Assembly: GCF_003334765.1 (NCBI RefSeq)
Contig: NZ_QOWT01000011.1
Direction: 5' to 3' (one strand)
Source of the DNA: Escherichia coli
GTDB lineage: Bacteria; Pseudomonadota; Gammaproteobacteria; Enterobacterales; Enterobacteriaceae
Length of the DNA stretch: 64,000 nt
Position 1 is the stretch's first letter. Every line of letters begins with the position of its first letter. Made by a program: the position numbers and the translations under genes. Below, piece by piece: positions 25,399-38,148 of the stretch. A model generated the notes under the pieces. That model was given only the letters and a program-made list of their open reading frames with translations, did no database searches and was not told the origin of the DNA.

Positions 25399-25992
25399 AT
25401 GACTTCTCTGTATTTAGCTTCCGGTTCTCCGCGTCGTCAGGAGTTACTTGCGCAACTTGGCGTGACCTTTGAACGTATTGTTACGGGCATTGAGGAGCAG
25501 CGTCAGCCGCAGGAGAGCGCGCAGCAGTATGTTGTGCGTCTGGCGCGCGAGAAAGCACGGGCAGGTGTCGCGCAAACGGCGAAGGATCTCCCGGTGCTGG
25601 GTGCGGATACTATCGTTATCCTGAACGGAGAAGTGCTGGAGAAACCGCGCGACGCAGAGCATGCGGCGCAGATGTTGCGCAAATTATCGGGTCAGACCCA
25701 TCAGGTGATGACAGCAGTGGCGTTGGCCGACAGCCAGCACATTCTCGATTGCCTGGTGGTCACCGATGTGACTTTCAGAACGTTAACAGACGAAGACATC
25801 GCGGGCTATGTCGCCAGCGATGAACCGTTAGATAAAGCAGGTGCATACGGTATTCAGGGGCTGGGTGGCTGTTTTGTCAGGAAGATAAATGGCAGCTATC
25901 ACGCCGTAGTCGGCTTACCGCTGGTTGAAACGTATGAATTATTAAGTAATTTTAACGCACTGCGTGAGAAAAGGGATAAACATGACGGCTGA
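25399..25992 (+). CDS. yhdE: Maf-like nucleoside triphosphate pyrophosphatase
   Basis: Start placed at [17 protein letters not shown] (197 aa); Maf family. Confidence 0.9.
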
Positions 25993-27451
25993 ATTGTTAG
26001 TAAACGTAACGCCTTCGGAAACGCGAGTGGCGTATATTGATGGCGGTATTCTGCAGGAAATTCATATTGAACGTGAGGCGCGACGCGGAATAGTAGGCAA
26101 TATCTACAAGGGTCGTGTAAGTCGTGTACTTCCGGGTATGCAGGCGGCTTTTGTAGATATTGGGCTGGATAAAGCCGCGTTTCTTCATGCATCCGACATC
26201 ATGCCGCACACCGAATGTGTGGCGGGTGAAGAACAAAAGCAATTCACGGTGCGCGACATCTCGGAACTGGTTCGTCAGGGGCAAGATCTGATGGTGCAGG
26301 TGGTGAAAGATCCGCTTGGCACTAAAGGTGCGCGCCTGACCACCGATATCACGCTCCCTTCTCGCTATCTGGTGTTTATGCCAGGGGCTTCTCACGTTGG
26401 GGTTTCCCAACGTATTGAAAGCGAATCAGAACGTGAACGCCTGAAAAAAGTGGTCGCAGAGTATTGCGACGAGCAGGGCGGGTTTATCATCCGTACCGCA
26501 GCGGAAGGGGTTGGCGAGGCTGAACTGGCCTCCGATGCCGCTTATCTGAAACGCGTCTGGACCAAAGTTATGGAGCGTAAAAAACGCCCGCAGACCCGTT
26601 ATCAGCTGTACGGCGAACTGGCGCTGGCGCAGCGTGTTCTGCGTGATTTCGCCGATGCCGAACTGGACCGCATTCGCGTTGACTCACGCCTGACTTACGA
26701 AGCGTTACTTGAGTTCACCTCGGAGTACATTCCCGAGATGACAAGCAAGCTGGAGCATTACACAGGACGCCAGCCGATTTTCGATCTCTTTGATGTCGAA
26801 AACGAAATCCAGCGAGCGCTGGAACGCAAAGTAGAACTGAAATCCGGTGGTTATCTCATTATCGACCAGACCGAAGCGATGACCACCGTGGACATCAATA
26901 CCGGAGCGTTTGTCGGTCATCGCAATCTGGACGACACCATTTTCAATACCAATATTGAAGCGACGCAGGCTATCGCTCGCCAGTTACGGTTGCGTAATCT
27001 GGGCGGGATTATCATTATTGATTTCATCGATATGAATAATGAAGATCACCGCCGCCGAGTGCTGCACTCGCTGGAGCAGGCGTTGAGCAAAGACCGGGTG
27101 AAAACCAGCGTTAATGGTTTTTCGGCGCTGGGGCTGGTGGAGATGACGCGTAAACGCACCCGCGAAAGCATTGAGCACGTACTGTGTAACGAATGCCCAA
27201 CCTGCCACGGTCGCGGAACGGTGAAAACCGTGGAAACGGTATGCTATGAAATCATGCGCGAGATTGTTCGTGTCCACCATGCTTACGACTCCGACCGTTT
27301 CCTGGTCTATGCTTCTCCGGCAGTAGCTGAAGCCTTGAAAGGCGAAGAGTCACACTCGCTGGCGGAAGTGGAAATTTTCGTTGGCAAACAGGTTAAAGTA
27401 CAAATTGAACCGCTCTATAACCAGGAGCAGTTTGACGTCGTAATGATGTAA
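25982..27451 (+). CDS. rng: Ribonuclease G
   Basis: Start placed at [22 protein letters not shown] (489 aa); S1 domain plus RNase E/G catalytic core; overlaps yhdE by 11 nt. Confidence 0.95.
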
Positions 27452-35497: not shown

Positions 35498-37465
35498 ATG
35501 GGTATTTTCTCCATTGCTAACCAACATATTCGCTTTGCGGTAAAACTGGCGACCGCCATTGTACTGGCGCTGTTTGTTGGCTTTCACTTCCAGCTGGAAA
35601 CGCCACGCTGGGCGGTACTGACAGCGGCGATTGTTGCCGCCGGTCCGGCCTTTGCTGCGGGAGGTGAACCGTATTCTGGCGCTATTCGCTATCGTGGCTT
35701 TTTGCGCATCATCGGCACATTTATTGGCTGTATTGCCGGACTGGTGATCATCATTGCGATGATCCGCGCACCATTATTGATGATTCTGGTGTGCTGTATC
35801 TGGGCCGGTTTTTGTACCTGGATATCCTCGCTGGTACGAATAGAAAACTCGTATGCGTGGGGGCTGGCCGGTTATACCGCGCTGATCATTGTGATCACCA
35901 TTCAGCCGGAACCATTGCTTACGCCGCAGTTTGCCGTCGAACGTTGTAGCGAGATCGTTATCGGTATTGTGTGTGCGATTATGGCGGATTTGCTCTTTTC
36001 TCCGCGATCGATCAAACAAGAAGTGGATCGAGAGCTGGAAAGTTTGCTGGTCGCGCAATATCAATTAATGCAACTCTGTATCAAGCATGGCGATGGTGAA
36101 GTTGTCGATAAAGCCTGGGGCGACCTGGTGCGACGCACCACGGCGCTACAAGGCATGCGCAGCAACCTGAATATGGAATCTTCCCGCTGGGCGCGGGCCA
36201 ATCGACGTTTAAAAGCGATCAATACGCTATCGCTGACGCTGATTACCCAATCCTGCGAAACTTATCTTATTCAGAATACGCGCCCGGAATTGATCACTGA
36301 TACTTTCCGCGAATTTTTTGACACGCCGGTAGAAACCGCGCAGGACGTCCACAAGCAGCTCAAACGCCTGCGGAGAGTTATCGCCTGGACCGGGGAACGG
36401 GAAACGCCTGTCACCATTTATAGCTGGGTCGCGGCGGCAACGCGTTATCAGCTTCTCAAGCGCGGCGTTATCAGTAACACAAAAATCAACGCCACCGAAG
36501 AAGAGATCCTGCAAGGCGAACCGGAAGTAAAAGTAGAGTCAGCCGAACGTCATCATGCAATGGTTAACTTCTGGCGAACCACACTTTCCTGCATTCTGGG
36601 CACGCTTTTCTGGCTGTGGACGGGCTGGACTTCCGGCAGTGGTGCAATGGTGATGATTGCGGTAGTGACGTCACTGGCAATGCGTTTGCCGAATCCACGC
36701 ATGGTGGCGATCGACTTTATCTACGGGACGCTGGCCGCGCTGCCGTTAGGGCTGCTCTACTTTTTGGTGATTATCCCTAATACCCAACAGAGCATGTTGC
36801 TGCTGTGCATTAGCCTGGCAGTGCTGGGATTCTTCCTCGGTATAGAAGTACAGAAACGGCGACTGGGCTCGATGGGGGCACTGGCCAGCACCATAAATAT
36901 TATCGTGCTGGATAACCCGATGACTTTCCATTTCAGTCAGTTTCTCGACAGCGCATTAGGGCAAATCGTCGGCTGTGTGCTCGCGTTCACCGTTATTTTG
37001 CTGGTGCGGGATAAATCGCGCGACAGGACCGGACGTGTACTGCTTAATCAGTTTGTTTCTGCCGCTGTTTCCGCGATGACTACCAATGTGGCACGTCGTA
37101 AAGAGAACCACCTCCCGGCACTTTATCAGCAGCTGTTTTTGCTGATGAATAAGTTCCCAGGGGATTTGCCGAAATTTCGCCTGGCGCTGACGATGATTAT
37201 CGCGCACCAGCGCCTGCGTGATGCACCGATCCCGGTTAACGAGGATTTATCGGCGTTTCACCGACAAATGCGCCGCACAGCAGACCATGTGATATCTGCC
37301 CGTAGCGATGATAAACGTCGTCGGTACTTTGGCCAGTTGCTGGAAGAACTGGAAATCTACCAGGAAAAGCTACGCATCTGGCAAGCGCCACCGCAGGTGA
37401 CGGAACCGGTAAATCGGCTGGCGGGGATGCTCCATAAGTATCAACATGCGTTGACCGATAGTTAA
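35498..37465 (+). CDS. aaeB: p-Hydroxybenzoic acid efflux pump subunit
   Basis: 655 aa polytopic ORF immediately downstream of aaeA. Confidence 0.92.
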
Positions 37466-37467
37466 GT

Positions 37468-37497
37468 CAAAACCGACGCCAAAAGCGTCGGTTTTTT
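37468..37497 (+). terminator. Rho-independent terminator downstream of aaeB
   Basis: aaaaccgacgccaaaagcgtcggtttttt. Confidence 0.7.
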
Positions 37498-37556
37498 CAT
37501 GGCTATACTTAGCGATGCACGGCAGAACTCGCCGCGAAACGTGACGGTGGCAACAG

Positions 37557-37829
37557 ATGAATATTTATACCTTTGATTTTGATGAGATTGAGAGTCAGGA
37601 GGATTTTTATCGTGACTTTAGCCAAACCTTTGGTCTGGCGAAAGATAAGGTACGCGATCTCGACTCACTATGGGATGTGTTAATGAACGATGTCCTGCCG
37701 CTACCACTTGAGATTGAATTTGTTCATCTGGGAGAGAAAACGCGTCGCCGTTTTGGCGCGTTAATATTGCTGTTTGATGAGGCGGAGGAAGAGCTGGAAG
37801 GGCATTTGCGTTTTAATGTTCGTCATTAG
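37557..37829 (+). CDS. yhcO: Barstar-like ribonuclease inhibitor homolog
   Basis: 90 aa acidic [30 protein letters not shown]...; barstar fold family. Confidence 0.85.
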
Positions 37830-37831
37830 CG

Positions 37832-37857
37832 CAAAAAAAAGCCCCCGAACCGGGGGC
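37832..37857 (-). terminator. Rho-independent terminator downstream of yhcN
   Basis: Minus-strand hairpin gcccccggttcgggggc followed by TTTTTTTT. Confidence 0.7.
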
Positions 37858-37884: not shown

Positions 37885-38148
37885 TTATTTGTACAGTTCA
37901 GCCGTAGCGTGCCAGGTGTCACCGCTACGAGCTTCAGTAATCTGGTAGGCCGTTGCGCCTTTCTCTTCCGCTTTTTTGTTCAGCATTTCACGCATATCCA
38001 TTGGCGAAGACGCCACACCACTTACGGATACGGTCCCGATTGCTTCACGATTTTGTGCTTGTGCAGCATCAATGGAGTCGGCAGCGAATGCACCGAAAGA
38101 GAGAACAGAAAGTACGCTTAATGCAGCAACAGTGGTTTTGATTTTCAT
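37885..38148 (-). CDS. yhcN: Periplasmic stress-induced protein (YhcN/YdgH/BhsA family)
   Basis: Start placed at MKIKTTVAALSVLSVLSFGAFA (87 aa); signal peptide plus DUF1471-like domain. Confidence 0.88.
   Translation of the reverse strand: MKIKTTVAALSVLSVLSFGAFAADSIDAAQAQNREAIGTVSVSGVASSPMDMREMLNKKAEEKGATAYQITEARSGDTWHATAELYK

Follow-up and report, generated by a model that had tools for sequence, protein, structure and literature searches.

yhcO of Escherichia coli as the probable surviving inhibitor gene of an ancestral ribonuclease-barstar operon

The yhcO locus and its product

We analyzed yhcO, a short gene within a 64,000-nucleotide stretch of an Escherichia coli contig (NZ_QOWT01000011.1; this whole stretch is called the window below). 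The gene is an ATG-to-TAG open reading frame (ORF) of 90 codons at 37557-37829 on the plus strand, coincides with the RefSeq coding sequence of E. coli K-12, and is labeled "barstar family protein" in RefSeq. Its product is acidic, with 21 Asp and Glu against 10 Lys and Arg residues and an isoelectric point of 4.5. On the same strand, aaeXAB lies upstream, and its final gene, aaeB, stops at 37465; downstream, the convergent yhcN occupies 37885-38148 on the minus strand, which leaves flanking gaps of 91 bp and 55 bp. The E. coli gene order is tldD, then aaeR-aaeXAB-yhcO, with yhcN, argR and mdh on the other side of yhcO, and the window has the same arrangement in this region as the K-12 chromosome. 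A first-pass annotation made from the sequence alone had described yhcO as an orphan barstar-like ribonuclease (RNase) inhibitor gene, possibly conferring immunity to a toxin; its coordinates, size, charge and neighbors for the gene all agree with the ORF, the annotation and the composition. Our data suggest that yhcO is the surviving inhibitor half of an RNase-inhibitor operon that has lost its RNase.

In syntenic relatives, the aaeB-yhcO intergenic region (37466-37556, plus strand) holds an aldehyde dehydrogenase gene and/or a barnase-type RNase gene. In the window it contains the strong intrinsic terminator of aaeXAB (37469-37497, plus strand), with an 11-bp stem followed by a U-tract, a predicted folding energy of -16.7 kcal/mol, and a z-score of -5.1. 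Because this terminator stands between them, yhcO appears to be separate from the upstream operon. Just past the terminator we found CTATACTTA (37503-37511, plus strand; 46 bp before the ATG), a predicted sigma-S-type -10 element that we take to be a close match to the sigma-S consensus and consider the candidate yhcO promoter. The element recurs at the corresponding position, after the aaeB terminator, in Salmonella arizonae and Klebsiella oxytoca. No such element lies within 260 bp upstream in six of seven loci with a dehydrogenase gene before the barstar gene, so in those loci the barstar gene may be co-transcribed with the dehydrogenase gene. A putative, weak Shine-Dalgarno-like GGTGG (37546-37550, plus strand) lies 6 nt before the yhcO start codon, and a GC-rich hairpin between yhcO and yhcN (37841-37857) has a U-tract on the yhcN strand only. 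A search for structured or small RNAs over the locus gave only sub-threshold, terminator-like Rfam matches.

YhcO matches the Pfam Barstar profile (PF01337.24) with an E-value of 2.4e-9 and 37.5 bits over residues 1-81 (model positions 1-85 of 96), and no NCBIfam model matches it. The protein is 100% identical to PDB 2CX6, a solved crystal structure titled "ribonuclease inhibitor Barstar", and it closely resembles the Salmonella protein in PDB 5F4C (84% identity over a 90-residue phmmer alignment; 77% by Foldseek). By sequence, Bacillus barstar chains are about 20% identical to YhcO, with phmmer E-values of just 0.06-1. A single-sequence AlphaFold 2 model was poor, with a predicted local distance difference test (pLDDT) score of 68.6, and we used an alignment-based model instead (pLDDT 95.9; template modeling (TM) score of 0.99 to 2CX6). 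This model aligned with more than 20 barstar chains at TM scores of 0.76-0.82 and E-values of 1e-4 to 1e-3, and with the barstar chains of barnase complexes at TM scores of 0.77-0.81 and a root-mean-square deviation (rmsd) of about 2 Å. The barstar fold is of the alpha/beta type, a parallel sheet of three strands with helices packed on it. Profile, fold and core motif all place YhcO in the barstar family. The "barstar-like" label of the first-pass annotation is thus borne out by the profile match, the identity to 2CX6 and model TM scores near 0.8: both a barstar-family hit and a barstar fold were found. The yhcO gene, its family assignment and its structure are all already public.

Two observations concern how the window compares with other E. 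coli records. Position 37784, within yhcO, is G in the window and A in the MG1655 record NZ_CP032667.1, a synonymous difference, and the register between the two sequences shifts upstream of about 31 kb. In an evenly spaced sample of the yhcO match ranking, identity was at most 99.6%, apart from one 100% match over just 83% of the gene, and there was no exact full-length copy among these rows.

RNase-inhibitor pairs in relatives and loss of the RNase

A HMMER search of 1.84 billion representative proteins returned 112 YhcO homologues. The first two 45%-identical homologues that we located are encoded directly 3' of a PF00545 RNase gene that in turn comes after tldD. We then scanned species-representative genomes with a barstar alignment and classified the best 80 of 171 confirmed matches by tblastn. 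At 64 of these 80 loci, an intact RNase gene encoding a 137-183 aa protein with a signal peptide ends between -17 and +32 bp from the barstar start, usually at 1-5 bp. Thirteen loci are orphans, and the remaining three carry a decaying RNase gene. The paired RNases have N-terminal basic-then-hydrophobic segments typical of export signals, and equivalents of barnase K27, D54, N58, R59, E73, R83, R87, H102 and Y103 are conserved in 64-65 of 66 RNases.

The RNase gene is present in Morganellaceae (Xenorhabdus, Photorhabdus, Providencia, Proteus and Arsenophonus), with the gene order tldD-RNase-barstar-darP-pmbA, and in Yersiniaceae, Hafniaceae and relatives (Yersinia, Serratia, Rouxiella, Ewingella, Hafnia and Edwardsiella), with the order tldD-aaeR-aaeXAB-(aldehyde dehydrogenase)-RNase-barstar-darP-pmbA. 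It is absent from Enterobacteriaceae (Escherichia, Salmonella, Citrobacter, Enterobacter, Lelliottia, Klebsiella and Kosakonia), Erwinia mallotivora and one metagenomic contig, where the order is tldD-aaeR-aaeXAB-(aldehyde dehydrogenase)-barstar-yhcN-argR-mdh. In Enterobacter, the stop codon of the dehydrogenase gene lies 46 bp from the barstar start, while in Yersinia the RNase gene and then the barstar gene come after this dehydrogenase gene; this junction therefore indicates that the RNase gene was excised cleanly. In a simple neighbor-joining tree, which approximately follows taxonomy, the orphans form a monophyletic clade that is sister to the paired Yersiniaceae/Hafniaceae/Xenorhabdus-Photorhabdus group. 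Erwiniaceae generally carry divergent RNase-barstar pairs away from the tldD/aae site.

Both sides of the barstar gene show further change. The aldehyde dehydrogenase (PF00171, about 484-508 aa) lies between aaeB and the RNase and barstar genes in Yersinia, and between aaeB and the barstar gene in Enterobacter, Lelliottia, Kosakonia, Citrobacter amalonaticus and Erwinia mallotivora; genes of this type lie at 5940-7412 in locus L025, 6428-7954 in L009 and 3506-4960 in L086. It is missing from the junction in E. coli (equivalent positions 37466-37556 of the window), Salmonella arizonae and Klebsiella oxytoca, which therefore marks a second, later deletion at the same junction. Downstream of the barstar, Yersiniaceae, Hafniaceae and Morganellaceae have darP-pmbA and Enterobacteriaceae have yhcN-argR-mdh (about 8300-8900 in loci L018-L035; 37830-37884 in the window). 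These differing genes therefore place a rearrangement breakpoint right after the barstar, so that both flanks of yhcO were rearranged while the gene survived. The downstream yhcN (YdgH/BhsA-like, PF07338) is a tandem paralogue pair in most Enterobacteriaceae loci (5330-5596 and 5712-5975 in L086; about 8330-9000 in L008-L016) and a single gene in E. coli.

Two homologues stood apart from this pattern. At locus L067 (JRUP01000019.1, "Enterobacter cancerogenus M004", 7564-8267), an RNase-barstar pair in a different context groups with that of Pantoea sp. alder81 (L071) in an Erwiniaceae-type clade; either the record is misnamed or the pair was horizontally acquired, probably. Another homologue, P0158, looked intermediate but is an orphan-type gene with a frameshift, on a contig of 658 bp.

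At the three loci with decaying RNase genes, the barstar ORF is intact. The RNase pseudogene of the Arsenophonus endosymbiont of Aphis (L039, 7535-7994) has a frameshift, that of Edwardsiella ictaluri (L076, 7795-7989) has lost its N-terminal half and carries E73G, and that of Hafnia psychrotolerans (L047, 7795-7992) has internal deletions that take out the catalytic His region. These are independent repeats of a history in which the RNase is lost first and the inhibitor is kept. RNase-first decay is the order expected of a poison-antidote pair, since losing the inhibitor first would be lethal. Because of the synteny and the clade pattern, the most economical reading is an ancestral exported-RNase/inhibitor operon that was inherited vertically and underwent a single deletion, and we consider it highly probable that yhcO became an orphan through RNase deletion, with the inhibitor retained under selection.

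If E. coli encoded a cognate barnase-type RNase that is unlinked to yhcO or too divergent to recognize, yhcO would not truly be an orphan. Within the window, manually entered query sequences of barnase, binase, RNase Sa and RNase T1 gave a best tblastn E-value of 0.14, none of the alternative-frame ORFs around yhcO is RNase-like, and the sole RNase annotated in positions 1-50000, the portion for which annotation was fetched, is rng (RNase G, 25891-27360), which belongs to an unrelated cytoplasmic family. Where paired relatives have a PF00545 gene directly upstream on the same strand, yhcO has the 91-bp gap with the aaeB terminator. With enterobacterial RNases as queries, tblastn found nothing upstream of yhcO and no RNase remnant in the upstream regions of Enterobacteriaceae. 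An unannotated RNase ORF adjoining yhcO is ruled out by the small flanking gaps, the dissimilar alternative-frame ORFs and this lack of a remnant. The earlier statement that no barnase-type RNase lies next to yhcO therefore stands, for the window as a whole as well, by ORFs, tblastn and annotation.

We also looked for a partner across genomes, at the DNA level. When Yersinia RNase-barstar DNA was compared by blastn with 5426 E. coli genomes, it matched yhcO alone (in 5424 genomes) and never through its RNase part. A tblastn search of plasmids for barnase-type genes returned Bacillus, Clostridium and mislabeled Proteus chromosomes and none on Enterobacteriaceae plasmids, and the same search of phages returned nothing. 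To our knowledge, the K-12 proteome has no PF00545 member. A hidden partner gains some plausibility from the nature of the E. coli searches, which were made at the DNA level with limited protein-level coverage. BECR-fold RNases (the RelE family, colicins D and E5, and some CdiA-CT domains) also share the barnase fold class (PMC3482391, PMC9990079). The known E. coli BECR toxins, as is generally held, have their own unrelated antitoxin or immunity proteins. Given this and the consistent lack of RNase matches, a hidden cognate RNase seems improbable to us.

Interface residues and selection on the orphan inhibitor

We next compared the residues through which barstar contacts barnase. By alignment, barstar residues 27-46 (the loop, helix alpha-2 and following loop that bind barnase) correspond to yhcO codons 28-48 (37638-37700, plus strand). 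Codons 36-40 (37662-37676, plus strand) encode D-S-L-W-D, the DxxxD motif named for the barstar family in PMC3482391, in which barstar has Asp35, Trp38 and Asp39. The pattern L-D-x-L-W-D (L35, D36, L38, W39 and D40 in YhcO; L34, D35, L37, W38 and D39 in barstar) is invariant in all 77 orphan and paired homologues, and E75 and E79, equivalent to barstar E76 and E80, are present in all orphans. Barstar Asp39, Asp35 and Glu76 are reportedly energetic hot spots that sit in the phosphate-binding site of the RNase. The acidic residues with which barstar plugs the active site lie on helices alpha-2 and alpha-4. These hot-spot residues lower the stability of barstar itself, and that they have nevertheless stayed invariant speaks for a basic site still being bound.

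The residues around this core have changed. F30-G31-x-N33 (barstar numbering), immediately before DxxxD, is invariant in all 64 RNase-paired inhibitors, which span three phyla including Bacteroidota and Fusobacteriota, and is replaced by K-V-x-D/N in all 13 orphan species. The orphans also have one residue inserted after helix alpha-2, and the equivalents of T42/G43, which are T-G in paired genes, are variable. In E. coli YhcO, K31-V32-R33-D34 stands in place of F-G-x-N, and M43-N44-D45 includes the inserted residue. YhcO thus lacks the F-G-x-N and T-G features, which we take, from the literature on 1BRS, to be peripheral contacts with barnase. Among 230 retrieved homologues, close Enterobacteriaceae-type relatives have [KQRNST][VI]x[DN]LD[STA]LWD and never FG: a polar residue plus Val or Ile occurs in 120 of 120 such relatives containing the motif, and FG is confined to sequences at most 45% identical to YhcO. 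A 255-aa metagenomic homologue (P0214) carries its barstar domain at the C-terminus (residues 173-251), with FG-x-N-LDALWD intact.

In paired barstars, the binding segment is the best-conserved part of the protein. Identity within segment 27-46 versus elsewhere is 61% versus 37% between distant and close paired inhibitors, and 53% versus 17% between Bacillus barstar and enteric paired inhibitors. This pattern is inverted in the orphans, at 62% versus 74% within the orphan group and 34% versus 56% when orphans are compared with the paired inhibitors nearest to them. In its C-terminal half, the protein is better conserved among orphans than among paired inhibitors. As read from these alignments, the loop was remodeled mainly on the stem branch of the orphans, with purifying selection since. 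Because the otherwise universal F-G-x-N contact motif has been replaced, the present target of YhcO is most likely not the ancestral RNase.

Selection on the orphan gene itself is purifying. The ratio of nonsynonymous to synonymous substitution rates (dN/dS; Nei-Gojobori method) is 0.14 across orphan pairs and 0.07-0.09 in the paired genes of Yersinia and Serratia, and with phylogenetically independent pairs it is 0.11 for orphans and 0.09 for paired genes; synonymous sites are saturated (dS >1) in the deeper orphan comparisons. The binding segment has a dN/dS of 0.11, with no sign of positive or diversifying selection. All 13 sampled orphan species have an intact barstar ORF. Each of the 5426 complete E. 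coli genomes carries yhcO over at least 80% of its length (5418 at 95% identity or more), and the gene, at a single fixed place in the chromosome, behaves as a core gene that is inherited vertically. The gene is also regulated: it is RpoS-dependent in O157:H7 (PMC2907692), its expression rises on rapid acid treatment (PMC2270276), and LldR binds and activates it (PMC10272880).

These data bear on whether YhcO could be an inert relic, an inhibitor left without function after RNase loss whose decay is still to come. The three lineages in which the RNase has been pseudogenized first with the barstar ORF intact indicate that transient orphan inhibitors do exist, and no phenotype or partner of YhcO is reported in the searchable literature. 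The orphan state, however, spans at least seven genera with dS >1, and yet dN/dS remains at 0.11-0.14; the conserved C-terminal half, the intact ORFs and the regulated expression point the same way. Given purifying selection, universal presence in E. coli and regulated expression, we regard an inert relic as very improbable.

The first-pass annotation had proposed that YhcO may be an orphan immunity protein against an RNase toxin encoded elsewhere or delivered by competitors. In such a scenario, YhcO would still bind barnase-family RNase domains and would be kept against toxins arriving through type VI secretion systems (T6SS), Rhs proteins or contact-dependent inhibition (CDI) systems with Tox-Barnase tips, or against RNases encoded elsewhere in some strains. 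The invariant acidic hot-spot residues and Trp fit this idea, as does purifying selection, and Imm-Barstar is the immunity partner of Tox-Barnase and Ntox21 in polymorphic toxin systems across many phyla, gamma-proteobacteria among them (PMC3482391). In addition, the RNase residues that face the acidic residues are invariant in enterobacterial RNases, which makes a generalist inhibitor conceivable.

The genomic context of yhcO speaks against such a role. The gene lacks the strain-variable presence and diversifying binding surface of immunity genes, and its neighbors aaeXAB, yhcN, argR and mdh include no immunity array and no Rhs, CdiA, T6SS or colicin genes. We count yhcO as non-mobile. PADLOC and PHROGs gave no match to YhcO, and hence no defense-system or phage affiliation. 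Some yhcO matches in a plasmid collection are 4-5 Mb records, evidently chromosomes labeled as plasmids; others lie on plasmid records of 0.18-0.8 Mb, one of them conjugative. The 4-5 Mb whole-chromosome records in PLSDB that gave spurious "plasmid" matches were NZ_OL790811.1 and NZ_OL790812.1 (Proteus) and NZ_OL790696.1, NZ_CP134663.1 and NZ_CP141089.1 (E. coli). Loss of F-G-x-N and the lack of barnase-type genes by tblastn on Enterobacteriaceae plasmids and phages also weigh against immunity. Moreover, the ancestral RNases are short signal-peptide proteins (137-183 aa) without a translocation domain, and would be unlikely to enter a neighbor's cytoplasm. Since yhcO belongs to the chromosomal core genes and to the RpoS regulon and shows no diversifying selection, and deletion of the RNase is a simpler cause of its orphan state, the immunity proposal is weakly supported and in our view rather unlikely. 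Protection by YhcO against foreign barnase-type toxins is possible; a retained or repurposed inhibitor is more likely.

Proposed explanation and comparison with known systems

We propose that yhcO is what remains, the inhibitor half, of a two-gene operon of ancestral Enterobacterales, which would have encoded an exported barnase-family RNase and, 1-5 bp further on, its cytoplasmic barstar-type inhibitor. From the Enterobacteriaceae-type genera (Escherichia, Salmonella, Citrobacter, Klebsiella, Enterobacter and Kosakonia) the RNase gene is gone without trace, most economically through one deletion in their common ancestor; the inhibitor has been kept under purifying selection as a core gene in its own, terminator-insulated transcription unit. 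As a small, acidic, cytoplasmic protein with a barstar fold, YhcO would bind the basic phosphate-binding site of a partner stoichiometrically, with predicted contacts through helix alpha-2 (Asp36, Trp39 and Asp40) and Glu75/Glu79, much as barstar plugs the barnase active site. Its present target is probably a different protein, encountered in stationary phase or under acid stress. For this explanation as a whole (a survivor of RNase loss, acting as a barstar-like plug on a target that is no longer a barnase-type RNase), we estimate a probability of about 0.5.

Several points weigh against it. The absence of the barnase family elsewhere in E. coli rests on a DNA search with one Yersinia gene; tblastn covered plasmids and phages, and the E. 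coli chromosomes had no protein-profile search, so distant homologues are possible. Intermediate states may be missed among the best 80 of 171 matches. The orphan clade includes Erwinia mallotivora, while the pairs of other Erwiniaceae are divergent and lie elsewhere. We found no binding or inhibition experiment on YhcO in the searchable literature, and we infer its activity and target. Finally, the retained Asp36, Asp40 and Glu75 are equally compatible with continued inhibition of a barnase-type RNase, and the change from FG to xV would weaken RNase binding only by inference. A more specific version, which we offer tentatively, is that after RNase deletion and rebuilding of the loop on the Enterobacteriaceae stem, YhcO was exapted to bind and regulate a different endogenous protein, such as another nuclease or an RNA/DNA-binding protein, by mimicking the phosphate backbone during RpoS-controlled stationary phase or acid/lactate stress.

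The literature that we found on YhcO comprises expression data and in-silico annotation; we found no study on the function of either YhcO or the enterobacterial RNase. Our literature search likewise found no paper on the syntenic Enterobacterales RNase-barstar operon, the clean RNase deletion in Enterobacteriaceae, or the clade-specific remodeling of the loop. YhcO is an E. coli K-12 protein with a solved structure and a family name, and viewing it as the remainder of an operon makes its function directly testable. The locus also illustrates cleanly, in nature, how unequal the fates of a poison and its antidote can be: the poison goes first, in four independent lineages, and the antidote can last very long.

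The best-known relative of YhcO is Bacillus amyloliquefaciens barstar (PF01337; PDB 1BRS, 1BGS and 1A19). Both are acidic proteins of 89-90 aa with the same alpha/beta fold (TM about 0.8, rmsd about 2 Å), and both have DxxxD with Trp (D35, W38 and D39 in barstar) and the Glu76/Glu80 equivalents. YhcO differs in that the equivalents of barstar Tyr29/Tyr30-Gly31-x-Asn33 and Thr42-Gly43-Trp44 are replaced and one extra residue follows helix alpha-2. It is about 20% identical to barstar and has no adjacent or known barnase.

Closer to YhcO are the inhibitors of the chromosomal RNase-barstar operons of Yersinia, Serratia, Hafnia, Xenorhabdus, Photorhabdus, Proteus and Providencia, which are orthologous to it, 38-57% identical, and encoded at the syntenic tldD/aaeRXAB site; one record annotates such a paired inhibitor, via a Y. 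pestis gene, as "probable ribonuclease inhibitor YPO3690". Their C-terminal halves, including RRFGA(L/I)(I/V)LLF(D/E), are nearly identical to that of YhcO. Unlike yhcO, these operons keep the upstream signal-peptide PF00545 RNase gene, with tightly adjacent or overlapping stop and start codons, and have darP-pmbA rather than yhcN-argR downstream, and their inhibitors keep F-G-x-N-L-D-A-L-W-D-x-V-T-G. Salmonella Typhimurium YhcO (PDB 5F4C, "Ribonuclease Inhibitor Barstar") is an orthologue within the orphan clade, with a TM score of 0.98 and the same gene neighborhood (L008); it differs from the E. coli protein by Thr for Ser37 (DLDTLWD) and by other substitutions in the binding segment. The Imm-Barstar immunity genes of polymorphic toxin systems (Zhang et al. 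2012, PMC3482391) share the domain family and DxxxD with yhcO. Those genes adjoin Tox-Barnase or Ntox21 tips or cassette arrays and are variably present, whereas yhcO is a fixed core gene.

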